From: Pseudomonadota bacterium
Lineage (GTDB): Bacteria > Pseudomonadota > Gammaproteobacteria > JAKAQQ01
NCBI GenBank assembly: GCA_021798115.1
Contig: JAJZYM010000001.1
Location: forward strand, 44,421-108,420
Length of the DNA stretch: 64,000 bases
Direction of reading: 5' to 3'
Each line of letters begins with the position of its first letter. The stretch's first letter is position 1. This document shows positions 9,826 through 47,918 of this stretch, one piece after another. Under the pieces are notes generated by a model. It was not told the origin of the DNA. It did not search any database and saw nothing but the letters and a program-made list of their open reading frames with translations. The position numbers and the translations under genes are program-made.

Positions 9826-9899
9826 TGGCTGGGGGACGTGGATTCGAACCACGGTTCGCGGAGTCAGAGTCCGCTGTCCTACCGCTAGACGATCCCCCA
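9826..9899 (-). tRNA. tRNA-Gln (anticodon CUG)
   Basis: The minus-strand sequence TGGGGGATC GTCT AGCGGTA GGAC A GCGGA CTCTGAC TCCGC GAAC CGTGG TTCGAAT CCACG TCCCCCA G CCA folds as a cloverleaf. It has a U1:A72 pair, G73 discriminator, GGTTCGAATCC T-arm, encoded CCA and a CUG anticodon in a 7-nt loop. Confidence 0.85.
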
Positions 9900-28105: not shown

Positions 28106-29596
28106 GTGCGCACGACCGTCCACGCTCAGGAGCTCCTACGCGCGATCGACCGCTCGCTCACCGCTCTCGAGGCGTCTCTGCGCCGAGGCCACAGCGAAGA
28201 ATTTCGTGCGTATCTCCGTGTCATGGCGCGCTTTCACCGCTACTCGAGCCGCAACGTCTGGCTCATTCTGCGCCAGCGTCCCGGGGCCCGGCTCGTCGCC
28301 GGCCACGTGCGTTGGCGAAGCCTCGGCCGCCACGTCCGTCAGGGCGAGCGGGGCATCGCTATCCTGGCACCCACGACGAGGCGTCGGCTCGACGCATCCA
28401 GCGGCCGTGAGGAACGCCACATCGAAGGCTTTCACGTCGCCCGCGTCTGGGACCTCGAACAGACGGACGGACGACCGTTGCCGGATTACATTGGCGCCGG
28501 GATCGACGGACAGCTTGATCCCGACACCCTCAGGCGGGCGCTTGAGACCCCCCCCGTCCCGGTCCGCTTCGCCGCGATCCGCGGCGACGGGGAGACCGAC
28601 GGACGGGAAATCCGTCTCGCCCCGGATCTCTCACCGGCCCGTACGCTTGTCGCCCTCGCTCACGAATGGGCCCACGTTCTCCTCCACTTCCGACCCGAGA
28701 GCGACGGGGCGGATCTTCCTGCCGAGGCACGCGAGCTCGAGGCGGAAGGGACCGCCTACGTGGTCGCCGCCCATTTTGGGATTGCGGACCGTTCGGGTTG
28801 CGATTACATCCTCTCCTACGGAGGAAGCGCCGAGAGCCTCGAGCGGCGGATCGAACGGATCCGCTGGGCCTCCGGGACGATTCTCGAGCATCTACGGGTC
28901 CCTGTGGGCGCAGAGGATTCAGGATTGCGCGACCACCTCACCGAGAATGCGTTTCCACTCCTCCCCGAGTCCGGCCCGCTCGGCGAAGGCACGTGCGAAG
29001 CGGGGGCGTCCGCAGGCGGTCTCGAGGAGCACCTGGACATCGCTCCACCAGGTGGCCCGTTCGGCGTAACGCCACGAGAGGCGGGCCTTGGCGGGGAAGA
29101 GGACCTCACGGTACCAGCGCTCGGGATCGGTCTGCCGGGCGAGAAGCGCTTCCTCGCAACGGCAGAGGATCGAGCTCGGATCGGTGATGCCCGGACGCAG
29201 CTCGAGGAGCGAGCGTGCCTCCCCGTGGTCGAAGAGCGCAGCGTAGGTCGGGACTTCGGGGCGCGCGCCGACGAACGTCATGCGCCCCGCGAGGACATCG
29301 ATGAGCTGCGGCCATTCGTCGATCTTGGTGCGCCGAAGCCGGGATCCGATCCGGGTGACTCGGGGGTCCCCCCCGACCGTGAGGGCGGCCCCTCCCATCC
29401 CCGCTCGCATGGTGCGGAATTTGTGAAGCGTGAAGCGACGGCCGCCGCGTCCGAGCCGCTCTTGGCGGTAGAGAACCGGGCGTCCGTCCGCACAGAGGAT
29501 GACGAAAGCGACGACGAGGGCCGGCAACGCCAGGGCGACCAGCAGGACGAACGCCAGGACGATGTCACGTCCCCGGGTACGCCTCACCGGCGGTGA
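28106..29596 (+). CDS. ArdC-like protein: N-terminal ssDNA-binding ArdC-N (DUF1738-like) domain plus HExxH metallopeptidase-like domain
   Basis: ...FHRYSSRNVWLILRQRPGARLVAGHVRWRSLGRHVRQGERGIAILAPTT...VARVWDLEQTDGRPLPDY matches the ArdC-N motif pattern, followed by LAHEWAHVLLH. The ORF stays open to 29596 in GC-rich sequence. The functional protein probably ends near 29000, since the 3' part overlaps the convergent pglC-like gene. Confidence 0.5.
   Translation: MRTTVHAQELLRAIDRSLTALEASLRRGHSEEFRAYLRVMARFHRYSSRNVWLILRQRPGARLVAGHVRWRSLGRHVRQGERGIAILAPTTRRRLDASSGREERHIEGFHVARVWDLEQTDGRPLPDYIGAGIDGQLDPDTLRRALETPPVPVRFAAIRGDGETDGREIRLAPDLSPARTLVALAHEWAHVLLHFRPESDGADLPAEARELEAEGTAYVVAAHFGIADRSGCDYILSYGGSAESLERRIERIRWASGTILEHLRVPVGAEDSGLRDHLTENAFPLLPESGPLGEGTCEAGASAGGLEEHLDIAPPGGPFGVTPREAGLGGEEDLTVPALGIGLPGEKRFLATAEDRARIGDARTQLEERACLPVVEERSVGRDFGARADERHAPREDIDELRPFVDLGAPKPGSDPGDSGVPPDREGGPSHPRSHGAEFVKREATAAASEPLLAVENRASVRTEDDESDDEGRQRQGDQQDERQDDVTSPGTPHRR
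28919..29587 (-). CDS. undecaprenyl-phosphate sugar phosphotransferase (small PglC/WbaP-C-terminal-type bacterial sugar transferase)
   Basis: GTG at 29587 overlaps the TGA of the upstream aminotransferase (GTGA). The sequence LVVAFVILCADGRPVLYRQERLGRGGRRFTLHKFRTM...DEWPQLIDVLAGRMTFVGARPE matches PglC-like motifs. Confidence 0.7.
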   Translation of the reverse strand: MRRTRGRDIVLAFVLLVALALPALVVAFVILCADGRPVLYRQERLGRGGRRFTLHKFRTMRAGMGGAALTVGGDPRVTRIGSRLRRTKIDEWPQLIDVLAGRMTFVGARPEVPTYAALFDHGEARSLLELRPGITDPSSILCRCEEALLARQTDPERWYREVLFPAKARLSWRYAERATWWSDVQVLLETACGRPRFARAFAERAGLGEEWKRILGEVVAQS

Positions 29597-30777
29597 CGCC
29601 CCAGCACGTCCCAGACGACCGCCACCACATCCTCGGCGTCCTCGTCCGCGAGCCCGGGATGAAACGGGAGACTCAGGAGCCTCCGGCCTGCCTCGTGGGT
29701 CCTCGGCAGATCGCCGGGCTGGTAACCGTAACGCTCTCGGTAGTACGGCTGCTCGTGAAGCGGGAGGAAATGCACCGAAGCGCCGATCCCCCGCTCCTGG
29801 AGCTCCTCGAGAATCGTTCCCCGCTCGGCGTCGAGCGCCTCGAGAACGAGACGGACCGGGTAGAGATGGTGGGCGCTCTCCACCCCCGGGCGTGTCACGG
29901 GCCGACGCAGCCAAGGGCAGTCGGCAAACCGAGCGTGGTAGAGAGCGGCGAGTTGCCGCCGCCGTTCCTGGAAGCCGGCAAAGCGCTTGAGTTGCACGAG
30001 GCCGAGTGCCGCCGCCACATCGGTCATGTTGTACTTGTAGCCCGGGGCCAGCACGGCGTACGACCACGGACCCCCGCGTTCGTAGCGACGGTAGGCGTCG
30101 CGGCTGAGACCGTGCAGGGCCAGCGGACGAGCTTTCTCGAGGAAAGCCGGATCGGCAACGAGAAGACCCCCCTCGCCGGTGGTGAGGTTCTTGGTCGCGT
30201 AGAAGCTGAACGCCACCGGATGACCTCCGACCCCCACCGGTCGCCCGCCGCTCGAAGCGCCCAGGGAATGGGCGGCATCCTCGACAAAAAGGAGATCGCG
30301 GGCGGCGCAGAGGGCACGCAGTGCGTCGAGCTCGGCCGGATGCCCGGCGTAGTCGACCGCGATCACGGCCCGCGTGCGCGGACCGATGCGACGGGCGACA
30401 TCGTCGGGATCGAGCGTGAGGACATCGTCGAGCACATCGGCAAACACCGGCCGCGCCCCAAGATGTTCCACGACGTTGGCGGTCGCCGCAAACGTGAGCG
30501 AAGGCACGATCACCTCGTCGCCGGGGCCGATCGCGGCGACGGCGAGGGAGAGATGCAGGGCGGCCGTGCACGAGCTCAGGGCCAGCGCCTCGGTCACGCC
30601 GATCGTCTCGGCCATCGCCCGTTCGAAGGCGGCCACACGCGGACCCGTGGTCAGCCAGCCGGAACGCAAAACCTCGACGACAGCGTTGACCTCATCCTCC
30701 CCGAGACACGGAGGAGCGAGGGGAAGATAGCCGCGGCGTGGACGCGGCGGAGACGAAACGGGCGTGTTCACGACGAA
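29584..30777 (-). CDS. DegT/DnrJ/EryC1/StrS family PLP-dependent sugar aminotransferase
   Basis: ...LSSCTAALHLSL...EVIVPSLTFAATAN...FSFYATKNLTTGEGG.... The start is approximate, with no clear ATG near the expected N-terminus. Confidence 0.75.
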   Translation of the reverse strand, partial: FVVNTPVSSPPRPRRGYLPLAPPCLGEDEVNAVVEVLRSGWLTTGPRVAAFERAMAETIGVTEALALSSCTAALHLSLAVAAIGPGDEVIVPSLTFAATANVVEHLGARPVFADVLDDVLTLDPDDVARRIGPRTRAVIAVDYAGHPAELDALRALCAARDLLFVEDAAHSLGASSGGRPVGVGGHPVAFSFYATKNLTTGEGGLLVADPAFLEKARPLALHGLSRDAYRRYERGGPWSYAVLAPGYKYNMTDVAAALGLVQLKRFAGFQERRRQLAALYHARFADCPWLRRPVTRPGVESAHHLYPVRLVLEALDAERGTILEELQERGIGASVHFLPLHEQPYYRERYGYQPGDLPRTHEAGRRLLSLPFHPGLADEDAEDVVAVVWDVLGRHRR

Positions 30778-31994
30778 GATTCGAAACGGGGATCGACAGC
30801 GCGCGCGAAGAGGGCTCGCGTTGCGCGGTAACCGATCGATCGAGCATACCAGCAACGGGCCGCTTCCGCCAGGGGGCGGAGTCGTTCAGGCTCATCCACG
30901 AGAAGCAGGCGAAGAGCGCCCACGAACGCCGCGCGATCCCCGGCCGGAACACTCACGCCCGCCCCGCTCCGTGCGAGAAGATCGGCGGTGTCGCCCGTCC
31001 CCGCAAAGAGCACGGGGCAGCCTTGCGCCAGATAATCGTAGACCTTGCTTGGCAGAGCCTCCGCAAAGAAAGGAACGGGGACATAAGCGTGCAAGCCCAG
31101 GGCGCAGCGCGCAAGCACCGCCCGGCAGATCCGTCTCGGGAGCGCCCCGAGCGCGTGGACGTTCGCCCCGCAGGCTCGGGCCCGCGCGACGAGCGGCGCT
31201 TTTTCCCCCGCCCCGATCATGAGCAGCCCCACCTCGGGGCAATCGGCAAGCGCCGCAAAGGCGTCCAGAAGAAACGCAACGTCGTTGGCGCGACCGTAAC
31301 CTCCGGCGTACACCGCCCAGCGACGGACTCCTTCGGGCAGGGGCGGCAGAGGGACCTCCCCCGCAGGCATGGACGGTGGAGCATCCGGAGCCAGATAGAC
31401 GTCGGCGTTCGGGAGCAGCGTGAGCTTCTCCTCGGGCACGCCCTCGGCACGCAAGCGGCGTCGTTGTCCCGGCGTCGCGACGAGAAGGTGATCGGCACGC
31501 CGGCGCAGACGTCGGGCCAGCGCGCCGAGAAGACGGGTCACGGCTCCCGGGCGCAGCACTCCCAGGGCCAGGGCCGTCTCGGGGTAAAGATCGCGTTCGT
31601 CGAGCACGAGCCGAGCGCGCTTGAGACGCGCCAGACCGGAAGCCAGAGGCACAAGGGGGAAGGGATCGGTGCCGACGAAGACCACCGAACAGGAGCCCGT
31701 CGCGACGCCGGCGAGCACGAAGGCACCCACAGCAAAAAGCCCGTAATGGAGGACGCGTCGGAGCAGGCTCCGACGGTGGTCGACGAGCCCCGGGGCTCTG
31801 AGGATCCGCAGATCCGGGTCCGCCGGCCGCCGGGCCAGCGCACGGCCCGTCATGTAATTCGTGCGGGCGGTGACGACGGTGACCCGCCAGCCCAGATCAC
31901 GAAGGAGACGAACCTCCATCCACGGCCGAAAGGCGCCCACGTCCTCATCGTCCGGAAGGTGATAGCTCAAAACCAGGACGTGCGGTCGACTCAC
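30768..31994 (-). CDS. glycosyltransferase family 4 (GT-B)
   Basis: 408 aa whose C-terminal half has GT4 features (...VYAGGYGRANDV...PSKVYDYLAQGCPVLF...). The GTG start overlaps the TGA of the upstream gene. Confidence 0.7.
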   Translation of the reverse strand: MSRPHVLVLSYHLPDDEDVGAFRPWMEVRLLRDLGWRVTVVTARTNYMTGRALARRPADPDLRILRAPGLVDHRRSLLRRVLHYGLFAVGAFVLAGVATGSCSVVFVGTDPFPLVPLASGLARLKRARLVLDERDLYPETALALGVLRPGAVTRLLGALARRLRRRADHLLVATPGQRRRLRAEGVPEEKLTLLPNADVYLAPDAPPSMPAGEVPLPPLPEGVRRWAVYAGGYGRANDVAFLLDAFAALADCPEVGLLMIGAGEKAPLVARARACGANVHALGALPRRICRAVLARCALGLHAYVPVPFFAEALPSKVYDYLAQGCPVLFAGTGDTADLLARSGAGVSVPAGDRAAFVGALRLLLVDEPERLRPLAEAARCWYARSIGYRATRALFARAVDPRFESSS

Positions 31995-33109
31995 CGTCCG
32001 GCCAAGGCCTCGCGGACAGCGGCCACAATGCGGGCCACGTCTTCGTCCGTCAGTCCGTGGTGAACGGGAAGCGACAGGACACGGGCGGCCAGGGTCTCGG
32101 TCACCGGGCAGGGGGGTGCGGCGGAACCCAGCGCGGCAAACACGGGCTGCTGGTGCACGCCACGCGGGTAATGAACAGCGCTTGGAACACCCCGTGCCGC
32201 GAGACGACGGGCGAGTTCGTCGCGGTCCATCCCCGCGGCGTCGGGGTCGACGACGATCGTGTACTGGTGCCAGGCGTGCACCCCCCCCGTGGTCACCGTC
32301 GGCAACCGCAGTCCCGCAAGGTCCGCCAGACCTTCCCCAAGCAGTCGGGCGTTCCGCGCCCGCCGCTCAAGCATCGCCGGGAGACGGCGAAGCTGACTGC
32401 GGCCGATCGCCGCTTCGACGTCGGTCATGCGGTAGTTGTAGCCGAGAACGGTGTGGAGATATTTGCCGGACTGACCGTGGCTGCGCAGAAGGCGCAGACG
32501 CTGGGCCAGTTCGCCGTCCCCGGTAGTGATCATCCCGCCTTCACCGACGAACAGGTTTTTCGACGGGTAGAAGGAATAGCAGACGGCGTCACCGAGGGCG
32601 CCCACGTCGCGCCCGTGGCATCGGGCCCCGTGCGCCTGAGCGGCGTCGTAGATCAAGAAAAGACCGTGCTCGCGGGCGAAGGCGGCGTAGTCCTCATGCA
32701 CACAGGGGTTGCCGTAAAGATGAACGGGAGCGATCGCCCGTGTGCGGGGACCGAGACGGCGGCGGGCATCGTCAAGATCAAGATGGAACGTGACCGGATC
32801 GACATCGCAGGCGACGACTTTTGCGCCGACAAGCGCCGCCATGGAGGCCGTGGCGACGAACGTAAACGAGGGAACGAGGATCTCGTCGCCCGGCCGGAGG
32901 AGAGCGTGGTAAACGAGGTGGAGCGCGGCCGACCCGTTCGCGCAGCTCACGGCGTGCGCGGCGCCGGTGGCGGCGGCGAATTCCTTCTCGAAGGCGGCAC
33001 ACTCGGGTCCTTCGCGCAACGCACCGGAACGCAGCACAGCGACGGCCGCCGCAATGTCCTCTTCGGAGAGGACGATCTGGGCCATGGACAGGGGACGGGT
33101 CTGATTCAC
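31991..33109 (-). CDS. DegT-family sugar aminotransferase (WbpE/WlbC-like, UDP-3-keto-sugar transaminase)
   Basis: ...VSCANGSAALHLVY...EILVPSFTFVATAS...YSFYPSKNLFVGEGG... at 372 aa. The ATG overlaps the stop of the upstream oxidoreductase. Confidence 0.75.
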   Translation of the reverse strand: MNQTRPLSMAQIVLSEEDIAAAVAVLRSGALREGPECAAFEKEFAAATGAAHAVSCANGSAALHLVYHALLRPGDEILVPSFTFVATASMAALVGAKVVACDVDPVTFHLDLDDARRRLGPRTRAIAPVHLYGNPCVHEDYAAFAREHGLFLIYDAAQAHGARCHGRDVGALGDAVCYSFYPSKNLFVGEGGMITTGDGELAQRLRLLRSHGQSGKYLHTVLGYNYRMTDVEAAIGRSQLRRLPAMLERRARNARLLGEGLADLAGLRLPTVTTGGVHAWHQYTIVVDPDAAGMDRDELARRLAARGVPSAVHYPRGVHQQPVFAALGSAAPPCPVTETLAARVLSLPVHHGLTDEDVARIVAAVREALAGR

Positions 33110-34104
33110 GAAAGAGCCTCAAGTTGATCGAGCAGGGTATGAAGGGGAACCGATTCATCGAAACCCGCGACGGGCGGAGGCGTTTGGGCCCGCGCCGCGT
33201 CGAGAAACACGCGGGCCTGGCGGAGATAGAGGTCGTCGCCGGGCGGGGGGAGTACCGTGCGGCCGGCGCTGTAGTCCCCGCCCCCACCCAGACTGTGGAC
33301 ATACGAAGGACGGTCGGCTTCGATCGACCCCCAGAACGTACCACGCTCGCCCTCGAGCTCGACGAACTGGACGAACCCGGGGCTCAGGAGGTCGCACGCC
33401 ACATGGAACGGGCGTCCCTCCCGGTCCACGTAGAGGAGAAGCACGGCATCTTCGGCGTCGGCCGCCACGTCTTCGCCATCGATTCGGCGCCGTCCTCGGA
33501 GCAGACGGCGATCCAGCAGGCGGACTTCGCGCGGAGGGCCAACGTACCAGAGCAGAAGATCGAGCATGTGGACCGCCATCTCGCGCAGCGCCCCACCTCC
33601 CTCATCCCGCCGGTGCTTCCACGCGCGGTGCGAGCCCCGCCCGCCGAGACGGAACCAGCCGTGGACGAGTCCGCCAAGAGGGCCCGCTCCGGGATCATCC
33701 TGCGCCAGCCGGCAAAGGCGCCGTCCTTCGGCGAACACAGCGGCGTGACGGTAGAGATAGCCCACCATCCCCACGAGACGGCGCTTTCGTGCGTCGTCAG
33801 CCAAAGACGCGGCTTCGGCAGCGTTGCCCGCAAGAGGCTTTTCACACAAGCAGTGTTTGCCGGCGGCCAGAGCCTGGGCCACAAGATCGGCGTGGCTCGG
33901 CGTTGGCGTGGCCACAACCACAGCTTGGGCGCGATCGCTCCACACCGCCGCGACGTCCAGGGGGTCGAGACCGAGACGCTGGGCCAGATCCCGCGCCCGT
34001 CCCGGGTCGGCGTCGGCGACGGCGATGCGCTCGACACCGGCGGCCCGGAACGCCCGGGCGTGCTTTTCTGCCTGTTTTCCCGCTCCGAGGATTGCGATGT
34101 CCAT
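33106..34104 (-). CDS. Gfo/Idh/MocA-family NAD-dependent oxidoreductase (WbpB/WlbA-like UDP-sugar 3-dehydrogenase)
   Basis: [19 protein letters not shown]...AVVVATPTPSHADLVAQALAAGKHCLCEKP matches the Rossmann and EKP motif. Confidence 0.7.
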   Translation of the reverse strand: MDIAILGAGKQAEKHARAFRAAGVERIAVADADPGRARDLAQRLGLDPLDVAAVWSDRAQAVVVATPTPSHADLVAQALAAGKHCLCEKPLAGNAAEAASLADDARKRRLVGMVGYLYRHAAVFAEGRRLCRLAQDDPGAGPLGGLVHGWFRLGGRGSHRAWKHRRDEGGGALREMAVHMLDLLLWYVGPPREVRLLDRRLLRGRRRIDGEDVAADAEDAVLLLYVDREGRPFHVACDLLSPGFVQFVELEGERGTFWGSIEADRPSYVHSLGGGGDYSAGRTVLPPPGDDLYLRQARVFLDAARAQTPPPVAGFDESVPLHTLLDQLEALS

Positions 34105-34739
34105 CAGGTCTCAGCCTCGTCCTCGAGCCAGCGGTCCCAGGAGCGTGCGCGGTTGCGCTCGCGCAGGGACGCGGGCAGCGGGACCCAGCGGGCCGGCACA
34201 CCGCGAACGAGCATCCCGGGCGGTACGTCCTTGGTCACGACGGCTCCGGCCGCGACAAAGCTTCCCGCACCGATGCGGACGCCCGGGCAGATCACCACAC
34301 CGGCGCCCAGCGTGACGTCGTCCTCGAGAATGGGCCCTTCGGGCCGGTAGGTCGCCCGCTGCCGCAGCGGGTAGCGATCGTTGGTGAGCGTCGCGTGAGG
34401 GCCGAGAAACACCCGACTCCCGATCGTGGTGTCGGTGGGAATGTAGCAGCCCGTCTCGATCTTGACGAAATCGCCGATGCGGGTGCGCCCGTCGAGGACA
34501 CTTGCCGTTCCCACCATGACGTGGGCCCCAAGGACCGTTTCCTCACGGATGAGCACGTTGTGGCCGGTGGCAAAATCCTCCCCCGCACGGACATCACCGT
34601 AGATGATTGTCCCGGAACGGATGCGGGCACCGCCCTCAAGAACGAAGGGGCCGCACTCAGGACGGTAACGCACGCCGAGTCGGCAACCCGGATCCACCTC
34701 GGGGGGGATGGCCGCCTGAAGATAATGCTCGTCACCCAC
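34104..34739 (-). CDS. left-handed beta-helix (hexapeptide-repeat) N-acetyltransferase (WbpD/WlbB-like)
   Basis: Hexapeptide repeats run throughout (…[61 protein letters not shown]…). Confidence 0.7.
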
Positions 34740-34791
34740 CGCTCAGATCCTCGAAACACCACGCCGAGAGACGGCGGAGACGGGTGCAATT

Positions 34792-37222: not shown

Positions 37223-38313
37223 ACTTCACTCTCCGTGTGCCGCACGCCGAAAGTCTCGGCCAGAACAGCACTGAGAAGAAGCTCGTCGTACTCTGCAGTC
37301 ATCACCGCACGTCCCAGCGCTTCGAGAAGGATGAGCCGTAGTTTACCCGCCCGGACTTTCTTGTCCCTCGCCATGAGGGCGCGAATCTCTCTCGGGTCGG
37401 CCGGAGGCGGTACGGTCGGAAGCCCCAAAACCTCAAGAAGGGCTGACACCCGCGCCCGTTCCGCCGCCCCGAGCCAACCCACACGTTGCGAGCACTCGGC
37501 CGCGAGATCGAGCCCCACGGCGACCGCTTCTCCGTGGAGCCAGCGGGCATAGCCGTCGTGCGTTTCGATAGCGTGCGCGAACGTGTGCCCAAGGTTGAGA
37601 AGAGCCCGACGGTTCTCCTCGTAGGGATCTTGGGTGACGACCGTCACCTTGTGGTGAATCGAACGGGTCACGGCCTCGTTCACCTCCTCGGGTCGGCGTT
37701 GCACAAGAAACACCGCGTGATCCTCGAGCCAGGAGAAAAAGTCGGCGTCGAAGGCCAGAGCGTACTTGAGAACCTCCGCGAGCCCGGCGCGGTAGTGCCG
37801 ATCCAAAAGCGTGCTGAGAAGACCAACGTCGACGACGACGAGCGTCGGAAAGAAGAAGGTTCCAAGGGCGTTCTTGGCCAACGGATGATCGACGCCGGTT
37901 TTGCCGCCCAGCGCGGCGTCGACCTGCGCCAAAAGTGTCGTCGGCACAAGGGCGTATTCGACCCCCCTCAGGTAGATCGAGGCGACGAAACCGGTGAGAT
38001 CGCCCACCATGCCGCCCCCCAACCCGATGAGCAGGACGTCGCGCCCGAAACCTTCGCGCAATAATCGTCCGGCCACCGCGTGAGCGGTGCGGGCGGTCTT
38101 GGTGCGCTCTCCGTCCGGCAGAACGATCGATAGCCGCCGCCGCGGGCGCAACACCATCTCGAGCCTCGAAAGATGATGTTTCGCCACCTCCCGGTCGCTC
38201 ACGATGACGACGTCACGCCCTTCCGCCAGCGCGCTCAAGGGACCACCCACGGCAAAGGCGTCCGCCGCGAGCACGATCTCCGAGCGGGCACGCGGAGGGG
38301 GCGGAGCGATCAC
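37219..38313 (-). CDS. aroB: 3-dehydroquinate synthase
   Basis: ...LIGLGGGMVGDLTGFVASIYLRGVEYALVPTTLLAQVDAALGGKTGVDHPLAKN...NLGHTFAHAIE.... GTG at 38313 overlaps the aroK TGA. Confidence 0.85.
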   Translation of the reverse strand: MIAPPPPRARSEIVLAADAFAVGGPLSALAEGRDVVIVSDREVAKHHLSRLEMVLRPRRRLSIVLPDGERTKTARTAHAVAGRLLREGFGRDVLLIGLGGGMVGDLTGFVASIYLRGVEYALVPTTLLAQVDAALGGKTGVDHPLAKNALGTFFFPTLVVVDVGLLSTLLDRHYRAGLAEVLKYALAFDADFFSWLEDHAVFLVQRRPEEVNEAVTRSIHHKVTVVTQDPYEENRRALLNLGHTFAHAIETHDGYARWLHGEAVAVGLDLAAECSQRVGWLGAAERARVSALLEVLGLPTVPPPADPREIRALMARDKKVRAGKLRLILLEALGRAVMTAEYDELLLSAVLAETFGVRHTESEV

Positions 38314-38870
38314 CCAGTTTGTGTGCACGGCACCTTCCATCCCCGCTCGGCCAGATCCGCAAGAATCCGCATCGTCACTTCCTCGGGAGTGCGCCCGGTG
38401 GTGTCCACAACCAAGTGAGCCAGTGCTTCGTAATGAGGAACGCGGGCGGCGTTAATCGGGGCCAGCACATCCAGCCCACGGGAAAGCAAAGGGCGTACGG
38501 TGTCTCTGGCCAGTCTCTTCCGTTGTTCCTCCTCCGTGACCGCGCAATAAACCACGGTTGTCTTCCGGGCGAGAAGAAGGCGGTTTCGGGCGAGGAGCAC
38601 AACCCCCCCTCCGGGCGTCAGAACACAGGGTGAGGCCTCAAGAACGCTTCTCAAAAGCTGGCTTTCCCAGCGACGAAATTCTCGCTCCCTGCCCGTGGCA
38701 AAGAGCGACGTGATGGGCATCCCGAGGCGCTCCTCGAGAAGACGATCGAGATCCACATGTGAGCGCCCCAGGCGACGGGCCAGAAGTTCGCCTACGGTGG
38801 TCTTCCCGGCCCCCATCGGGCCGATCAAACAGAGCGTCGTGTCCCGGACGGAACGCCGCGACTCCGTCAC
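38310..38870 (-). CDS. aroK: shikimate kinase
   Basis: LCLIGPMGAGKTTVGELLARRL is a Walker A motif. The protein is 186 aa and its ATG overlaps the upstream stop. Confidence 0.85.
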   Translation of the reverse strand: MTESRRSVRDTTLCLIGPMGAGKTTVGELLARRLGRSHVDLDRLLEERLGMPITSLFATGREREFRRWESQLLRSVLEASPCVLTPGGGVVLLARNRLLLARKTTVVYCAVTEEEQRKRLARDTVRPLLSRGLDVLAPINAARVPHYEALAHLVVDTTGRTPEEVTMRILADLAERGWKVPCTQTG

Positions 38871-40300
38871 GGACGCGGGTTGGGCGTCCCGTCCGTCACC
38901 CGTTCGCTCAGAATCCCCCCGGGGGTATGGCTCAGAACCTCAAGACGGGCGTCCCGACCATAGACCTGGACGGTGTAGCACCCTCGCTCGGCATCGGCGC
39001 CGAAAAGGCAGGATCCGCTAGGCGCCAGAACATTCGGAACGACAGCGACCCGAGGGGCCACAACACGCCCTCCAATAGCCCGGAACTCGAGACGGGTCCC
39101 GGCCGGGAGAGAACGCCCGCCAGCGGAGGTGACCGAAACAAGAGCGCTATAGCCACCGACCAACGGACGGCGTGAGACGAGGCGAATATGAACTCTGTCC
39201 CCGACGACGGCGAAAACGGCACGGCCCCTCAGAGGAGACCCAGCCTCTTCGGTCCGTGCACGAACCCAAACCTTCCCGTACCCCTCCGAAGCCAGCGTCG
39301 AGGCGTTTTCCTTCCAGAGGACACGGCATTGCCCATCACGGAGGACACAGCTCCGGAGAAGAGTCCCGCGGCTGGCTCTCAGGACGATTTTTGTCCCGTC
39401 GGCAAGAGGTATGCCCTGGCTCCCGTTGGCAACGATGAGGAGGGATTCGGACGCACGACCGTCCAGCGTTCCAAGGTTCAGAACGGTCGGGACCACGGAG
39501 AGAGAGGCCGTCTGGATAGAGGCAGCAGCATGAAAGGCTTCCGACACACTTCCGACGCCAGGCCCGTTTCTACCGACCAACCGGGCCAGGACCCGAACCG
39601 ACCCGCCGACGGCGGGGACGGTCAGCATCCCAAAAACTGTTCCTCCCGGACCGCTGCGTACAAAGTGGGTGCTCAACAGGCTCTGTGACCCACCGAGTAC
39701 GGAGAGTGCAACGGAGCGCCCGGGTTCGGGCGTGCCTTGCGGATTGCGGACAATGAAACCGACACGGACGGCCGTCCCTGGACTTATGAAACGCGGCGGA
39801 GCATCGACCCGTGGCACAACCGCATCGACCACGGCGGGCGACGAGGAGGAGATCGTGATGGTTCCGACCGCGATGAGATTGGAGCCGTTCACCTGGGCCG
39901 TGGCTTGAATGGTGTCGGTCCCGCTGCATCCGGTTCCCGCATTGTACGTGGCCACCGCTTCGCCCGAGGCATTGGTCGTCACGCTGGAGGTGATCGTCGC
40001 CTCCTTGTTAAGCACACAGTTCGAGCTGAAGTTCACCGTTGTGGGGACCGTGTACGCCGCTCCGGTGCTGTACTGGAGCACGGCGGTCACGGTGGCCGTT
40101 CCTCCGGGGGCAATCGTCGACGGACTCACGGCAAGGGCGCCGCTGGTGAAGGCTCCGTTTACCACGCTGCCCATCTCGAGCTGACCCGCGGCTTGGGAGG
40201 TCGAAGTAAAGCCCTGGCTCCCGCCGCAGGCGGCCAACAAAAGGAGAAGTCCTGAGGCAAGGAAGAGACGGAGAGCGGGACGGGACGTTGTGGCGTTCAT
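38867..40300 (-). CDS. lipoprotein with repeated Ig-like (Big-type) beta domains, function unknown
   Basis: Signal peptide with lipobox LLLLAACGG. The Ser/Thr/Gly/Val-rich beta-strand repeats contain Cys pairs. It sits between pilQ and aroK, co-directional and abutting both. Confidence 0.5.
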   Translation of the reverse strand: MNATTSRPALRLFLASGLLLLLAACGGSQGFTSTSQAAGQLEMGSVVNGAFTSGALAVSPSTIAPGGTATVTAVLQYSTGAAYTVPTTVNFSSNCVLNKEATITSSVTTNASGEAVATYNAGTGCSGTDTIQATAQVNGSNLIAVGTITISSSSPAVVDAVVPRVDAPPRFISPGTAVRVGFIVRNPQGTPEPGRSVALSVLGGSQSLLSTHFVRSGPGGTVFGMLTVPAVGGSVRVLARLVGRNGPGVGSVSEAFHAAASIQTASLSVVPTVLNLGTLDGRASESLLIVANGSQGIPLADGTKIVLRASRGTLLRSCVLRDGQCRVLWKENASTLASEGYGKVWVRARTEEAGSPLRGRAVFAVVGDRVHIRLVSRRPLVGGYSALVSVTSAGGRSLPAGTRLEFRAIGGRVVAPRVAVVPNVLAPSGSCLFGADAERGCYTVQVYGRDARLEVLSHTPGGILSERVTDGTPNPRP

Positions 40301-40337
40301 GGGGGCTTCTCCGGAACGGAAACGGCGCGGGACGAAA

Positions 40338-42485
40338 TCAGTGGACGGCGTGCAGGCTGGAGCTCAGAATTTTCGGGGTTACGAAAACGAGCAGCTCCGC
40401 CTTGTCGTTTTGCACTTGGACACTGCGGAACAACCAGCCAAGGAGGGGAATATCACCCAGCAGCGGAACCTTGTCGACCGTGCGGTTGCGGGTGGTCTCG
40501 TAAATGCCGCCAAGGACAACCGTGTCACCGTTGTCAACAAGCACTTGGGTGTGAACCGAACGCGTGTCGATGGCGGGGACTTCACCTCCTGTCCCAGTCG
40601 GAACCTCCTGCCCGACCGTGTCGTTGCGGACCTCAATGGCCATAACGATACGGTTGTCCGGTGTGATTTGCGGAGTCACCTCGAGTCGGAGAACAGCTTT
40701 TTTGAACGCCACAGCGGTCGCTCCGCTTGACGCGGCTTCCTGATAAGGAATCTCGACACCTTGCTCAATCAGCGCCTTTTGCTGATCCGCGGTGATCACT
40801 CTCGGGCTCGAAACGACTTCCCCAAGCCCTTGCGACTGCAGGGCCGAAAGTTCCAGATTGACGAGGTAATCGGAGTTCAAAATGCCCACAGCGAGCGTTC
40901 CCACAGGATTGGTGGCCGGAACGTTGACGCTCAGTTGATCGTTGAGCGCCGGAGGCGTAAGAGGGAAAAACGATCCCGTGCTGTTGTAGTTGGTCAGCGC
41001 GGACTGCTGGATCGTATTGTTGCCGTTGAGATCACCGGACGTGGTGAGCAGGCTCTGTGACCCAAGCTGGTGCACACCGGCGAGACCAATCTGGGCACCA
41101 AGCGCCCGGGTAAAGGTGTCGTTCGCCACGACGATCCGGGAAGAGATGAGAACCTGTTTCACAGGAATGTCGAGCGCACGCACCATGCGACGGACCGCGT
41201 GCAAACGCGCGCGCGTGTCGCGCACGATCAGCATGTTGGTCCGAGGATCAACGGAGACGCTGCCGCGGTGACCCAGCAGATTTTTCTCGCCCTGAATGAG
41301 CGAGGCCAGAGCCCCCGCCTTGGCATAGTTGATCGGGATGAAGGTGGTGTGCAACGGACTCAACGCAGCCAGAGTGCTCGCCGACTGGGCTTCGAGTCGG
41401 GCTCGCTGGGCCAACACCGCTGCCGGGCCGACCATAACCACGTTGCCCTGGCGGATCATCGTGAGTCCTTCGGTCTCCAGAATGATGTGAAGCGCTTGAT
41501 CCCACGGAACATCGTGCAGGCGCAGCGTGATGTGGCCGTGCACATCGTCCGCAACCACCATATTCAGCTTGCTGACATCGGCCAAAATCTGCAGCACCGC
41601 ACGGACGGGAATGCTCTGGAAGTCGAGGCTGATGCGCCGCCCGGTAAACACGCTCTGGCGGAGACGGGCCAAAGCCGCCGCCGTGAGCGGCTTCAGTTCC
41701 ACCGCAAAAACACGGTTGGTTTGGAAGGCCAGCTGCTGAAAATGACCGACACCCCGGATTCGGATCTCGGCCGCTCCGTCTGGCAGCTGTCGGGCGCTGA
41801 AGGAGCGAACAGGCGTGGCAAAATCCGTCACGAGGTAGCGCCGGCGCAGATTGCGCCTGAGATGCGTGTGCGGAAAGAGGACGGTCAGCCGGTTCCCGAC
41901 TTGGTGGACGAGACCGGTCACGGACGACGAGCTGAGACGAACATAGATCCGCCCCGCACCGTAGGCCGTGCGGCGGAACCGGAGACTCAGGATGCGGGTG
42001 ATCAAGGACGGAGCCGTTGGTGATACGGCGGAGGGTTGAGACGCGGCGAGAGCGGCAACCTGGACGCGGGACGCGCGTCCGAGCGTGAGATCGATGTCTT
42101 GTCCGTGCACGGACAAACGGTAGGGCACCATCCGCCTGAGATTCACCACAACACGTGTCCGCACCCCCTGCGCGGCCAGCATGACGTTCCGCACCACCCC
42201 AATGTGGATCGGTTCAATTTCGTGGTGAACCGCAAGGCGCATGGCCGATAGGTCCAGCGCTACGTACGGAGGATTGATCACCGAGAAGGCAAAGGGACGA
42301 GACAGCCTGCCTTGCACGTGGAGCACAATGCGCACCCGGTTGCCGCTCAGACCGAAAGCGTGGACCGCGGTCAAGGTCCCAGCGACGGGAGCCGCCCACA
42401 CAGGCGCGGTCACGAGAGCCGAGGAAAGAAGCAGCGAACCGCCGATCGTCCACCACCCTCGTGCCGAAGAAATGCGAAGCGCCAT
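40338..42485 (-). CDS. pilQ: type IVa pilus secretin PilQ
   Basis: 715 aa with N-terminal AMIN/N0-N1 domains and a secretin C-domain (...TNMLIVRDTRARLHAVRRMVRALDIPVKQVLISSRIV... ...VPLLGDIPLLGWLFRS...VFVTPKIL). Confidence 0.9.
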   Translation of the reverse strand: MALRISSARGWWTIGGSLLLSSALVTAPVWAAPVAGTLTAVHAFGLSGNRVRIVLHVQGRLSRPFAFSVINPPYVALDLSAMRLAVHHEIEPIHIGVVRNVMLAAQGVRTRVVVNLRRMVPYRLSVHGQDIDLTLGRASRVQVAALAASQPSAVSPTAPSLITRILSLRFRRTAYGAGRIYVRLSSSSVTGLVHQVGNRLTVLFPHTHLRRNLRRRYLVTDFATPVRSFSARQLPDGAAEIRIRGVGHFQQLAFQTNRVFAVELKPLTAAALARLRQSVFTGRRISLDFQSIPVRAVLQILADVSKLNMVVADDVHGHITLRLHDVPWDQALHIILETEGLTMIRQGNVVMVGPAAVLAQRARLEAQSASTLAALSPLHTTFIPINYAKAGALASLIQGEKNLLGHRGSVSVDPRTNMLIVRDTRARLHAVRRMVRALDIPVKQVLISSRIVVANDTFTRALGAQIGLAGVHQLGSQSLLTTSGDLNGNNTIQQSALTNYNSTGSFFPLTPPALNDQLSVNVPATNPVGTLAVGILNSDYLVNLELSALQSQGLGEVVSSPRVITADQQKALIEQGVEIPYQEAASSGATAVAFKKAVLRLEVTPQITPDNRIVMAIEVRNDTVGQEVPTGTGGEVPAIDTRSVHTQVLVDNGDTVVLGGIYETTRNRTVDKVPLLGDIPLLGWLFRSVQVQNDKAELLVFVTPKILSSSLHAVH

Positions 42486-42491
42486 GGCCGG

Positions 42492-43022
42492 TTATCCTCC
42501 TGACGTTGTCGATAAGGGCATAAAGACGCGTGTCACGACCCATCCTCCCGTGCCGTTGGCGAGAATCTCTCTCAGCACAAGGCCGTTGGGATGGATGGCG
42601 ACAATCTTGCCGTCGTTCTGCCCGAGGTAATTGCCGTAGGTCACACGATGGACGATCCCGTGCGGATCCTGCACAAGCGCGTAGATGTCTTTCCCCACAT
42701 GAAGCGTTCCGACGAGCTTGAGACTGTCTAGCGGGAAGCGCTCGAGATACTGACGGGGCCGGTTCGGGTTGGGGCGCACCGCCGAGGGCAACGCGCGGAT
42801 GCTGGGGACAAACGGCGAGCGCAAGAGCTCGGCGGAGAACGCCGGTGGGTGATACGGCGCCGGCTGTGGCACGGGCGCGAGAGGGGCGGGCGGAGCGTTT
42901 TCGACACGATGCACCCAGGCGCGCAAACTTTCCCCACCGCCTCCGCAGGCAGCCAAAGGCAGTACCAAGGCGAGAACCATCGCCGCCCGAGTGCCGAGTG
43001 CACGGAAACGCCTTACGCTCAC
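42492..43022 (-). CDS. pilP: type IV pilus assembly lipoprotein PilP
   Basis: 176 aa with the lipobox LPLAACGG. Its position between pilO and pilQ fits PilP. Confidence 0.75.
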   Translation of the reverse strand: MSVRRFRALGTRAAMVLALVLPLAACGGGGESLRAWVHRVENAPPAPLAPVPQPAPYHPPAFSAELLRSPFVPSIRALPSAVRPNPNRPRQYLERFPLDSLKLVGTLHVGKDIYALVQDPHGIVHRVTYGNYLGQNDGKIVAIHPNGLVLREILANGTGGWVVTRVFMPLSTTSGG

Positions 43023-45329: not shown

Positions 45330-45428
45330 GGTCGTGGGCTCTTGGTCCTATCTCTATGAATACCCTAAGGTTGGACGAACGAGTTTTCTCTTTCCCTTAA
45401 CATCTCGGCCTTAACTATAGCGCATTCC

Positions 45429-47918
45429 ATGGCTTTGTCAAACCGCCGCCCACCCGACCCGCCCCGGAGAGGACTGGGACCCCGGCTCCGCCGGGGACTC
45501 CTCGCCGGCTCCCTGGCATTCCTGTTGCTCGCTTTCGTCGGCGTCGCCGCCACCGCTTCGGTTTATTTCTGGGTGGCCCCCAGTCTGCCCTCCCTGGCGC
45601 TCCTCCGCCACATCGAGCTTCAGGCTCCGCTACGAATCTACTCACGACACGGAGGACTCATCGCCGAGTTCGGCAACGAGCGTCGCCGTCCGCTCGCTTA
45701 CCACCAGTTGCCACCACTGCTGATCGACGCTTTTTTGGCGGCTGAAGACGCCCGATTTTTCGCACACCCCGGGATCAGCGTGCTCGGCCTCACACGGGCA
45801 GCCATCCATCTTGTGCTCACCGGACACAAGACTCAAGGGGGGGGAACCATCAGCATGCAGGTGGCCCGCAACTATTTTCTCGGCCACCAGAAAACCTACA
45901 TCCGCAAGATCCGTGAGGTGTTCCTCTCGCTGCGCCTGGCCCACGATTTCAGCAAAGAGGAAGTGCTCCGACTCTACCTCAACAAAATCTATTTCGGCAA
46001 TCACGCCTACGGCATCGGCGCGGCGGCGGACGTGTACTACGGAACTCGCGTGAGCCGTCTCACCCTGCCCGAAATGGCTTTGCTCGCCGGATTGCCGCAG
46101 GCCCCTTCGCTGGACAACCCTGCGGCCAGCCCCCGGCGGGCCCGGGCCCGCCGGGCCTACGTCCTTGGACGTATGCTCAAGCTCGGCTACATCAACCGCA
46201 CGATGTACCGAGCCGCCATGAACGCTCCGATCCGGGTGCATCTGCACGGCCCGCACAGCGTTGTCCATGCCCCCTATGTCGCCGCCATGGTTCTTCAGTA
46301 CATGGATCACCGGTTCGGTAAGGCGGCCACCACCCTCGGCTACGATGTCGTGACCACACTGTCCGCGCGCCTTCAGCACGAAGCCAACGTGGCCTACAGA
46401 CGCGACCTCGAGGCTTACGGGCGGGTCTACGGTTACCGGGGGCCATCGGGGAGGGTGGGCGATCCGCGCACACTCTCTGCCCGCGCACGCCGACAAGCGC
46501 TACGACGCCTGACCCGCATTCACGGCTTACACCGGGCTTTGGTTGTCAACGTCTCCCCCCACTCCGCATCGGCAGTAACACGCCGTGGTCTTGTCCATCT
46601 CAACTGGGCTGCCCTGTCCTGGGCCCGTCCGTTCCACGGGGTCTCACACGTTTCCCCCCCACTCACGAGCGCGCGCCAGGCCCTCACCCCGGGCGATCTG
46701 ATTTATGTCATGCGCAACGGGGCCGGCCACTGGATCCTGGCCCAAATTCCCTGGGCTGAAGGGGGGCTCGTCTCCCTCGATCCGAAAGACGGAGCTGTGA
46801 GGGCTCTGGTTGGAGGGTTCTCCTATCGCCTCAGCAACTTCAACCGTGTCACCGAAGCCTATCGCCAGCCGGGATCTTCGTTCAAACCGTTCGTCTACTC
46901 GGCGGCGCTGCATTGGGGCATGACCCCGGCCACAGTCATCAATGACGCACCCATCGTCGTCGCGAACGCGCGCCGTGAGAACATCTGGAAGCCGGGCAAC
47001 TACACCGGACGCTTCTTCGGGCCGACCCGCCTGCGCGTCGCTTTGGCCCGTTCGCGCAATCTCGTGTCCGTACGCCTGCTGGACGACATCGGCGTGGACT
47101 ACGCCCTGAACTACATACGCCGCTTCGGCTTCAACCCCGATCGTCTCCCACACGATCTCACACTCGTCCTCGGAAGCGCCGATGTCACCCCGTGGACCAT
47201 GGCTCGGGGATACGCCGTATTTGCCAACGGTGGCTTCCTTGTGGCTCCTTACTTCATCAGCGCCGTAAGAACCGCAACCGGGGTTCCGGTCCTCCTTGCC
47301 GACCCGCAGCAGGCCTGTCCACGTTGCGCTCTCCAGGCTCCGGGAGCCACCAAAAAACAGAAGGGCTCCATCAAAATCGACGCCATTAATCCCGATCCTC
47401 CACGGCATCCCCACGTCCTCGTGCTCCCGTCCGAGCTCCACCCCCGTATCGCTCCGCGCGTGATCACGCCTCAGAATGCTTATCTAATTACCAGCATGAT
47501 GCAGTCGGTGATCCAGTTCGGTACCGGCGTCGGGGCTCAATCCCTCCATCGTGTCGACCTGGCGGGCAAGACCGGGACGACCAACAACTACGTGGATGCC
47601 TGGTTCGGAGGGTTCGATCCTTATTTGGTCACCCTGGTCTATGTCGGCCGAGACGATAACAAAACCTTGGGCTACGGTCAGGTCGGGGCTTTCGCCGCCC
47701 TCCCGATGTGGATTGATTTCATGGGACCGGCCCTGGCGGACCGACCCGACCTGCCCTACGCGCCCCCACCGGGAATCGTCGTTGCGCGCATCGACACACG
47801 GACGGGTCTCCGCTGCGGCCCGAGCGACCCGCACACGATGTTCGAGGTCTTTGAAGCCGGAAAACTCCCTGCACTTTGTTCCAGCCCTCACCGTCACCGA
47901 CACCACCATATTTTTTGA
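45429..47918 (+). CDS. mrcA: penicillin-binding protein 1A (bifunctional transglycosylase/transpeptidase)
   Basis: Transglycosylase motifs (EDARFFAHPGISVLGL, GGTISMQVARNYFL, RKIREVF) and a transpeptidase domain (SSFKPF, KTGTTN). It is divergent from pilM, as in Pseudomonas and Neisseria. Confidence 0.9.
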   Translation: MALSNRRPPDPPRRGLGPRLRRGLLAGSLAFLLLAFVGVAATASVYFWVAPSLPSLALLRHIELQAPLRIYSRHGGLIAEFGNERRRPLAYHQLPPLLIDAFLAAEDARFFAHPGISVLGLTRAAIHLVLTGHKTQGGGTISMQVARNYFLGHQKTYIRKIREVFLSLRLAHDFSKEEVLRLYLNKIYFGNHAYGIGAAADVYYGTRVSRLTLPEMALLAGLPQAPSLDNPAASPRRARARRAYVLGRMLKLGYINRTMYRAAMNAPIRVHLHGPHSVVHAPYVAAMVLQYMDHRFGKAATTLGYDVVTTLSARLQHEANVAYRRDLEAYGRVYGYRGPSGRVGDPRTLSARARRQALRRLTRIHGLHRALVVNVSPHSASAVTRRGLVHLNWAALSWARPFHGVSHVSPPLTSARQALTPGDLIYVMRNGAGHWILAQIPWAEGGLVSLDPKDGAVRALVGGFSYRLSNFNRVTEAYRQPGSSFKPFVYSAALHWGMTPATVINDAPIVVANARRENIWKPGNYTGRFFGPTRLRVALARSRNLVSVRLLDDIGVDYALNYIRRFGFNPDRLPHDLTLVLGSADVTPWTMARGYAVFANGGFLVAPYFISAVRTATGVPVLLADPQQACPRCALQAPGATKKQKGSIKIDAINPDPPRHPHVLVLPSELHPRIAPRVITPQNAYLITSMMQSVIQFGTGVGAQSLHRVDLAGKTGTTNNYVDAWFGGFDPYLVTLVYVGRDDNKTLGYGQVGAFAALPMWIDFMGPALADRPDLPYAPPPGIVVARIDTRTGLRCGPSDPHTMFEVFEAGKLPALCSSPHRHRHHHIF

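Follow-up and report, generated by a model that had tools for sequence, protein, structure and literature searches.

The window analyzed here is a 64,000-nucleotide stretch of a gammaproteobacterial contig (JAJZYM010000001.1, positions 44,421 to 108,420) that carries a type IVa pilus (T4aP) pilMNOPQ locus. Between pilQ, encoding the T4aP secretin, and aroK lies a gene for a 477-amino-acid (aa) lipoprotein, referred to here as X. An open reading frame (ORF) of this kind, co-oriented with its neighbors and wedged between them, had been noted in a first-pass annotation of the sequence and was confirmed by the ORF itself, by the Pfam and NCBIfam assignments of the adjacent genes, and by the lipobox. 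The same two resources identified pilM, pilN, pilO, pilP, and pilQ upstream of X, and aroK and aroB, then pyrF, hemE, and gmk, downstream, with X on the same strand as pilQ and aroK. The distance of 37 nt that had been given for pilQ and X corresponds to the spacer 40301..40337. The overlap of X with aroK is 4 nt long, as had been claimed, but its sequence is GTGA and not ATGA, aroK starting with GTG. This overlap is expected to couple translation of X into that of aroK.

X is considered to be a real gene rather than a chance ORF of high GC content because seven orthologues were identified, because its ratio of nonsynonymous to synonymous substitutions (dN/dS), determined against two orthologues, is 0.21-0.25 (compared to 0.085 for pilQ and 0.21-0.34 for aroK), and because its GC content at third codon positions (GC3) of 0.695 resembles that of its neighbors (0.68-0.75). 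The gene is under purifying selection. Its evolutionary rate is about 2.5-3 times that of PilQ, and the agreement in GC3 means that there is no compositional sign of a recent foreign origin. Co-transcription of X with the pilus operon is likely. The proposal of the first-pass annotation that X is co-expressed with the secretin gains support from the 37-nt gap with its Shine-Dalgarno sequence, from the failure to find a minus-strand terminator-like site between pilQ, X, and aroK, including the pilQ-X spacer, and from the stop/start overlap with aroK. The single strong sigma-70-like match for the operon lies upstream of pilM and is a candidate promoter for pilMNOPQ-X-aroKB; a weak promoter-like match in the 3' end of pilQ (40477..40449) was at chance level and was rejected. 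The ponA gene (45429-47918, plus strand; PBP1A-type, annotated in orthologous loci) is divergent from pilM, and the promoter match in the intergenic region faces pilM.

Architecture and family of the lipoprotein

The N terminus of X reads MNATTSRPALRLFLASGLLLLLAAC-GGSQG, where the last residue before the hyphen is Cys25. A positively charged n-region leads into a hydrophobic core, and the L-A-A-C lipobox that comes next conforms to the bacterial lipoprotein pattern [LVI][ASTVI][GAS]C; lipidation is predicted. Since Gly residues occupy positions +2 and +3, X carries no inner-membrane retention signal according to the Escherichia coli rule. AlphaFold2 modeled X with a mean predicted local distance difference test score (pLDDT) of 68 when 7 sequences were used, and with a pLDDT of 84.4 and a predicted template modeling score of 0.63 when 78 sequences were used. 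The deeper model consists of a signal helix (residues 9-23), a disordered tether (residues 25-37), and four successive beta-sandwiches, termed D1 to D4 (Table 1). The first-pass annotation had described repeated beta-sandwich-like segments; the beta-sandwiches are supported by the model, but the repetition is one of fold only, as no sequence similarity was detectable among the four domains.

Residues that are invariant across the 78 sequences include Cys25, Cys95/Cys125, Cys318/Cys325, G323, and Trp329, and the four Ig-like domains are predicted to be disulfide-stabilized. In relatives, the tether is a low-complexity linker whose length varies, and D1 is the unit of which giant relatives (L013, P0010-P0033) have many tandem copies. 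Pfam and NCBIfam searches of X revealed neither a barrel nor a LysM domain, and the signal peptide, the tether, and the four sandwiches account for the whole protein.

Table 1. Coordinates of X, its segments, and associated features in the window
Feature	Position	Strand	Details and basis
X, whole gene, stop included	38867..40300	minus	ATG start, 477 aa; orthologues, dN/dS, hhalign family match
Signal peptide, residues 1-24	40229..40300	minus	R7 and R11 in n-region, lipobox L-A-A; translation, model helix 9-23
Cys25 codon, predicted lipidated residue	40226..40228	minus	G-G-S comes next, Asp absent from +2; sequence, family P2'-P4' statistics
Flexible Gly/Ser/Thr-rich tether, residues 26-39	40184..40225	minus	pLDDT <50 at residues 25-37
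Domain 1 (D1), residues 40-152	39845..40183	minus	Beta-sandwich, invariant Cys95-Cys125; model, alignment
Domain 2 (D2), residues about 165-260	39521..39808	minus	Aligns with Big_1/Invasin_D3-scoring region of relatives; about 157-259 in the model
Domain 3 (D3), residues 262-366	39203..39517	minus	Beta-sandwich, signature P-x-DGT...G...C318...G-x-C325-x-V-x-W; alignment, model
Domain 4 (D4), residues 367-460	38921..39202	minus	C-terminal beta-sandwich, LPAGT motif, clade-specific Cys431-Cys441; hhalign, alignment, model
GTGA, X stop TGA overlapping aroK GTG start	38867..38870	minus	Sequence; identical overlap in orthologous loci L004-L007
aroK	38310..38870	minus	GTG start at 38870; Pfam/NCBIfam
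Shine-Dalgarno GGAG of X	40309..40312	minus	8 nt before X ATG, within pilQ-X spacer; direct sequence reading
pilQ, T4aP secretin	40338..42485	minus	AMIN, STN/N0, Secretin_N, and Secretin domains; TIGR02515 (495 bits), Pfam
Candidate sigma-70-like promoter, TTGACA-16-TATAGT	45414..45441	minus	11/12 match, upstream of pilM; consensus match alone

Neither Pfam, even at an E value of 0.1, nor NCBIfam returned a match for X, and the hits obtained in a search of PDB sequences (peptidase E and endoglucanase, E values of about 0.07-0.1) were at chance level and were discarded as noise. A word-indexed homologue search identified six close relatives with 47-94% identity, all of them from uncultured gammaproteobacterial metagenome-assembled genomes (MAGs) or metagenomes, as well as three weak matches to Big_1/Invasin_D3 proteins. 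An exhaustive profile search with the alignment of the X clade identified 751 proteins at an E value of ≤1e-3; many of these have 540-700 aa and are collinear with X from their own N terminus, and a lipobox was present in 20 of the 20 that were inspected. Searching with an alignment of these longer relatives yielded more than 1,185 clusters at an E value of ≤1e-10, and the names found among them were "hypothetical," "Big-1 domain-containing," and "Ig-like domain-containing" alone.

When the X clade was compared by hhalign to the 540-590-aa lipoproteins of this family, the probability was 99.9% and the E value 6.7e-36 over X residues 10-337. The homology is collinear over the lipobox, D1, D2, and D3, and C95/C125 as well as C318/C325/W329 are present. 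The C-terminal domain of X matched that of the family (PAGT...VPN...TTP-G) at 82-84% probability and an E value of about 1e-5, and the two were also aligned by MAFFT, so that D4 is probably the counterpart of the family C-terminal domain. Long members contain, between D3 and the C-terminal domain, an acidic module of about 100 residues (GEESF...DxNGNG...DDxEDG) that is absent from X and its clade, X being a deletion variant of the family as far as this module is concerned. The acidic module, for example at residues of about 345-425 of P0071, has repeated DxNGNG, DDxEDG, and DFNxNG loops resembling EF-hand or dockerin-type calcium sites. Some long family members have extra Calx-beta (PF03160) or Big_5 domains.

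The Pfam thresholds of Big_1 (PF02369) and Invasin_D3 (PF09134) are passed by relatives but not by X itself. In the fold search, X matched Big_1 domains of intimin and invasin, and its closest structural relatives were extracellular adhesin rods. Because its relatives pass these thresholds and its fold matches intimin/invasin, X can be regarded as a remote Big_1 homologue that falls below the Pfam threshold. The structural comparison called for by the first-pass annotation, carried out with the AlphaFold2 model and the fold search, thus led to intimin/invasin-type Ig domains. NCBIfam searches of seven relatives gave nothing beyond sub-threshold intimin matches. Giant proteins such as P0010, the top matches of the profile search, were considered as the nearest relatives of X and rejected, as their scores stem from the many D1 repeats and their per-stretch identity is no different, at 28-30% over three domains.

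The lengths of family members range from 468 to 2,569 aa as a result of tandem D1 multiplication, with the lipobox always in front. Members that are linked to pilQ have 468-796 aa (median 615, n=39) and unlinked members 560-1,508 aa (median 801, n=35), in a sample that is biased towards proteins of the query type. Taken together, X appears to belong, in shortened and fast-diverging form, to a large uncharacterized family of Big_1 lipoproteins, and the family match and the AlphaFold2 model lead to its description as a rod of intimin/invasin-type Ig domains that is anchored by a lipid and has no barrel. No Pfam or NCBIfam model was found for the family as a whole, and literature searches did not turn up any account of a gene for an Ig-like lipoprotein behind pilQ. 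The well-studied pilMNOPQ locus has, in many environmental Gammaproteobacteria, a conserved additional 3' gene that possesses neither a name nor a Pfam or NCBIfam family.

Genomic context of the family

Conservation was assessed from two sides. In a PilQ-anchored survey, the PilQ of the window was scanned against one genome per species, and PilQ, X, AroK, and AroB were mapped by tblastn. The arrangement pilQ-X-aroK was kept in all genomes of the X clade (PilQ at least 85% identical), and the most divergent clade member, P0006, has the order pilQ-X-aroK-aroB. In the next relatives, L010, L011, L012, and L046, with PilQ identities of about 60%, the pilQ-aroK gap measures 115-201 nt and contains no gene. 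However, a Big_1 lipoprotein with a CGG(G) lipobox reappears in the pilQ-aroK slot of more distant lineages, namely, in L037 (PilQ identity of 60%), in L023, L030, and L036 (47-48%, near Steroidobacteraceae), and in the complete Gallaecimonas sp. GXIMD1310 genome (L038), where it has 710 aa. In an uncultured gammaproteobacterial MAG (contig CAZKOE010000020.1; L013:8092-12609), the gene directly after pilQ encodes a giant lipoprotein in which at least 12 D1 copies, each of about 120 aa, stand in tandem after the family N terminus and which extends past the available DNA.

In two further loci with intact pilQ and aroK, the space between these two genes (1.1 kb in L020:6817-7954 and 0.6 kb in L034:8028-8658) contains pieces of the lipoprotein gene that are frameshifted or C-terminal, one of them being 85% identical to the final 39 aa of the L030 protein. 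These fragments are clear pseudogene remnants of recent loss. An 814-nt gap in L016 showed no detectable similarity. Overall, the lipoprotein gene was present in about 8 of the 37 gammaproteobacterial species loci, and remnants were present in 2. In delta-proteobacterial, Nitrospirota, and unclassified MAG loci (L047, L049, L050, L058, and L066), the slot is occupied by aroC, encoding chorismate synthase, which indicates that the pilQ-aro junction has collected different genes in different phyla; the inserts of these aroC-bearing loci were checked as potential family members and found to be unrelated. The first-pass annotation had called X inserted. This holds relative to the nearest outgroups with their gaps of 115-201 nt, but not in the sense of a local novelty, as the pairing of pilQ and the lipoprotein is old and widespread.

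The second approach started from the family. A metagenome scan with the family alignment provided at least 480 confirmed matches, of which 80 loci were kept for context analysis. Nineteen of these have pilQ upstream and aroK downstream, eight more have one of the two genes with the other side off the contig, three have pilQ upstream and a gene other than aroK downstream, and roughly 45 are located elsewhere. Overall, about 33 of the 80 sampled loci (about 40%) are pilQ-linked. The three loci in which pilQ is retained without aroK are informative: in L149 the order is pilP-pilQ-lipoprotein-DMT transporter, in L153 pilO-pilQ-lipoprotein precedes hemN-like and RNase E/G genes on the opposite strand, and in L170 the order is pilQ-lipoprotein-(153 aa)-pilW-pilX. 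They indicate that the partner of the lipoprotein gene is pilQ, together with pilus genes, and not aroK. Among individual members, P0039, P0058, and P0067 have pilQ and aroK on either side, and the cultured species Thiohalomonas denitrificans carries ponA, pilMNOPQ, a 543-aa lipoprotein gene, and aroK.

The lipoprotein gene and pilQ remain paired even where PilQ identity has dropped to about 32-45%. In a rough neighbor-joining tree (BLOSUM distances, midpoint root), which was used solely to show that the pilQ-linked members do not form one small subclade, these members are spread over most of the family and the X clade sits on a long branch. Members without pilQ linkage have unrelated housekeeping genes as neighbors, with no common theme. 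The commonest genomic home of the family is the 3' end of the T4aP pilMNOPQ operon. The finding that the first-pass annotation had named as refuting its proposal, a gene that is not conserved with pilQ and carries unrelated domains, was not obtained: seven of seven clade members keep pilQ-X-aroK, distant members also follow pilQ, and no unrelated catalytic domain was encountered.

The Shewanella protein P0008 and a marine group were examined as possible pilQ-linked members and rejected, since they are paralogues in an SDF/topA context. This marine subgroup (L123, L126, L129, L131, L133, L144, L145, L158, L162, and L093, the latter from Shewanella sp. HL-SH2) comprises longer paralogues of about 690-870 aa. 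They have an opposite-strand SDF transporter gene upstream and an arginase-family gene or astB downstream, followed by a large ORF that is topA in Shewanella.

Possible roles at the pilus locus

The closest functional precedent for X is InvL of Acinetobacter baumannii, a 492-aa lipoprotein adhesin that has an invasin-like Ig rod but lacks a beta-barrel and whose surface display requires GspD, the T2SS (type II secretion system) secretin (PMC9245377). InvL export also requires GspN and a Gly-rich "GGG" at positions P2'-P4' after the lipid Cys, and the surface-sorting motif at these positions was described as either Gly/Ser-rich (GGG-type) or ND(N/D) (PMC12802150). From its lipid Cys onward, X reads C-G-G-S-Q-G and is thus Gly/Ser-rich at P2'-P4'. 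Among 235 family lipoboxes, GGG is found at these positions in 98 and GGS in 33, and 197 contain at least two Gly or Ser residues. Compared by description, InvL and X are alike in having a lipoprotein signal, Gly-rich P2'-P4' positions, a size of about 480-490 aa, a barrel-less invasin-like Ig rod, and a tie to a secretin machine, which is functional for InvL and genetic for X. They differ in that InvL consists of three Ig domains and a lectin-like cap whereas X has four beta-sandwiches and no recognized lectin cap, and that the adhesin role is experimental in the former case and inferred in the latter.

Other known systems share single traits with X. The inverse autotransporters intimin and invasin (type Ve) have passenger rods that X resembles in structure, but X is devoid of their LysM domain, inverse autotransporter beta-barrel, and C-type lectin domain and is anchored by an N-terminal lipid instead of a barrel. 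The LigA and LigB proteins of Leptospira are lipobox-anchored surface adhesins made of tandem bacterial Ig-like domains in variable number. They resemble the X family as lipid-anchored Ig strings with a variable number of repeats, but they are composed of Big_2 and not Big_1 domains, belong to spirochaetes, and are not known to be linked to pilus genes. Some T2SS surface lipoproteins are encoded beside secretion genes. PulA, SslE, and MtrC/OmcA are surface lipoproteins exported by the T2SS (cited in PMC9245377); they, too, are secretin-dependent lipoproteins, but enzymes or cytochromes that use the T2SS, whereas X is an Ig rod at a T4aP locus.

An adhesin or other secretin-associated accessory role, both of which had been listed by the first-pass annotation, is plausible for X. 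Our preferred reading, to which we assign a probability of roughly 45%, is that X may be an accessory, outer-membrane-anchored, adhesin-like rod that is co-produced with the T4aP secretin. X would be exported by Sec and lipidated, its disulfides would be formed in a DsbA-type manner, and it would form a rod with an estimated length of roughly 15 nm that is anchored in the outer membrane and produced in step with the pilus secretin. D1 would act as the spacer of the rod, since it is the unit that multiplies, and the conserved C-terminal D3-D4 part may form the working end. By analogy with InvL and the Leptospira Lig proteins, X would then be a surface or adhesive accessory that complements pilus-mediated attachment without being needed for building the pilus. 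The domain-number polymorphism, which extends to a pilQ-linked giant, the dispensability of the gene, and the extracellular nature of the structural relatives are what would be expected of such an accessory and not of a core part of the machine. Adhesin-like behavior is also suggested by the evolutionary rate of X, which exceeds that of PilQ. Furthermore, the giants of up to 2,569 aa, which always have a lipobox, are too long for the periplasm.

Several observations weigh against this adhesin-like role. No lectin-like head was recognized in X, D4 being another beta-sandwich, and the fairly narrow size range of the pilQ-linked members would likewise fit a component of the periplasm whose geometry is fixed. 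More than half of the sampled family members are not located beside pilQ, and conserved adjacency is weak functional evidence because aroK and aroB are conserved beside pilQ without a known functional tie. The Gly-rich motif does not discriminate for surface sorting either, because PilP of the same organism, which we take not to be a surface protein, carries CGGGGE; the PilP sequence (42492-43022, minus strand) reads LAAC-GGGGE and is likewise Gly-rich after the lipobox Cys.

Two alternatives are considered less probable than the adhesin-like rod. X may be an unrelated passenger, that is, a generic envelope Big_1 lipoprotein without a pilus role that arrived in a slot of a constitutively transcribed operon and has stayed there in the manner of aroK-aroB. 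The pilQ-aroK-aroB synteny shows that the locus retains unrelated genes, and the occupation of the slot by aroC in other lineages, the location of more than half of the family among housekeeping genes elsewhere, and the dispensability of the gene in many lineages are all in line with this proposal. However, a mere passenger would hardly be expected to stay paired with pilQ over such a range of PilQ divergence and over most of the family tree, or to do so in loci that do not have aroK as the next gene, one of which continues with pilW and pilX, encoding minor pilins; besides, no other recurrent, functionally coherent neighbor was found. A comparable weight is given to a periplasm-facing accessory, in which the rod would run along the AMIN/N0/N1 domains of PilQ or towards PilP/PilNO and stabilize, space, or gate the secretin, thus resembling the secretin-interactors TsaP, PilP, or Slk rather than a pilotin. 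PilP is an inner-membrane-anchored lipoprotein whose beta-sandwich domain contacts PilQ and which is conserved throughout T4aP systems, and TsaP is a LysM-carrying accessory protein that decorates the secretin. PilP hence offers a precedent for a beta-sandwich lipoprotein as a PilQ partner, and its gene, coding for 176 aa in the window, belongs to the same operon as X, but X has a different architecture and a patchy distribution, and, unlike TsaP, it has no LysM match in Pfam. A Gly at +2 and the lack of a Lol-avoidance Asp predict default targeting to the outer membrane's inner leaflet, the slot directly after pilQ is tight and recurs even without aroK, and the pilQ-linked members are shorter and more uniform than the unlinked paralogues, all of which would suit a periplasmic location. 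Novel secretin-interacting proteins are, moreover, still emerging (bioRxiv 10.1101/2021.09.13.460190). What lowers the probability of this alternative is that the gene was repeatedly lost or pseudogenized with pilQ retained and is missing from the closest outgroups, that the pilQ-linked L013 protein with its tandem D1 copies is far too long for the periplasm, that X evolves so much faster than PilQ, and that its closest structural relatives are extracellular adhesin rods.

Two further proposals are given very little weight. The T4P pilotins PilF, PilW, and Tgl are all-helical tetratricopeptide repeat (TPR) lipoproteins of about 250 aa. PilQ multimers depend on them, and their genes usually lie apart from pilMNOPQ. 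The first-pass annotation had named a pilotin among the possible roles of X, in which case X would replace these proteins in piloting PilQ monomers to the outer membrane and promoting their multimerization. X is indeed predicted to be an outer-membrane lipoprotein encoded beside a secretin gene, and pilotins vary in structure from one secretin system to another. The pilotin role of PilF is stated in bioRxiv 10.1101/2021.09.13.460190. This idea was nevertheless set aside as very improbable: X is an all-beta four-domain rod without a TPR match or a small helical or cracked-barrel fold, its nearest relatives with a very similar PilQ do not possess the gene, the gene has decayed in L020 and L034 beside an intact pilQ, and paralogues occur without linkage to any secretin. 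X is thus evolutionarily dispensable, whereas the known pilotins, although outer-membrane lipoproteins of PilQ biology as well, have a different fold. Least probable of all is that X is an alpha-2-macroglobulin-like periplasmic protease trap or another defense protein made of macroglobulin (MG) domains. Fold searches also match MG domains of complement and of bacterial alpha-2-macroglobulins, weak Pfam MG4 matches occur in relatives, and bacterial alpha-2-macroglobulins are lipoproteins (4u48 description). These proteins, however, have about 1,500-1,650 aa (target lengths of 4u48 and 5a42), compared to the four domains and 477 aa of X, whose translation contains no CxEQ thioester motif and which has no bait region and no TED or CUB domains; the intimin/invasin matches are also stronger, and the similarity to MG domains is of a generic fold level.

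A more specific proposal, which we consider unlikely, is that the T4aP machine, via PilQ, may export the operon-encoded invasin-like lipoprotein to the cell surface in a T2SS-like manner and thus serve a dedicated lipidated adhesin. If so, the pilQ-linked family members of environmental Gammaproteobacteria would be cognate cargo, in parallel to the GspD/GspN-dependent display of InvL and PulA. Should X work with the pilus in any form, as an adhesin, secretin partner, or cargo, it would represent a new accessory component of T4aP systems, and a pilus-linked role would extend the recently discovered barrel-less, lipid-anchored class of invasin-like adhesins exemplified by InvL well beyond Acinetobacter. 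The existence of cultured hosts, Thiohalomonas denitrificans and Gallaecimonas sp., makes the handling of a lipoprotein by the T4aP secretin a genetically tractable question. If X is merely a passenger, it would be a further case of the pilQ-aroK junction collecting unrelated genes.

Other features of the window

X is the sole member of its family in the 64-kb window. Downstream of gmk, at about 28900-34740 on the minus strand, there is a sugar-modification or glycan cluster that is conserved in orthologous contigs. According to its Pfam labels, it encodes a hexapeptide acyltransferase, a GFO/IDH/MocA oxidoreductase, DegT-type aminotransferases, a GT4 glycosyltransferase, and a bacterial sugar-transferase-like ORF; in our own reading, this enzyme set would be that expected for a diacetamido-sugar pathway. 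ARAGORN and Rfam identified a single RNA gene in the window, that of tRNA-Gln(CTG), located at 9826-9899 on the minus strand.

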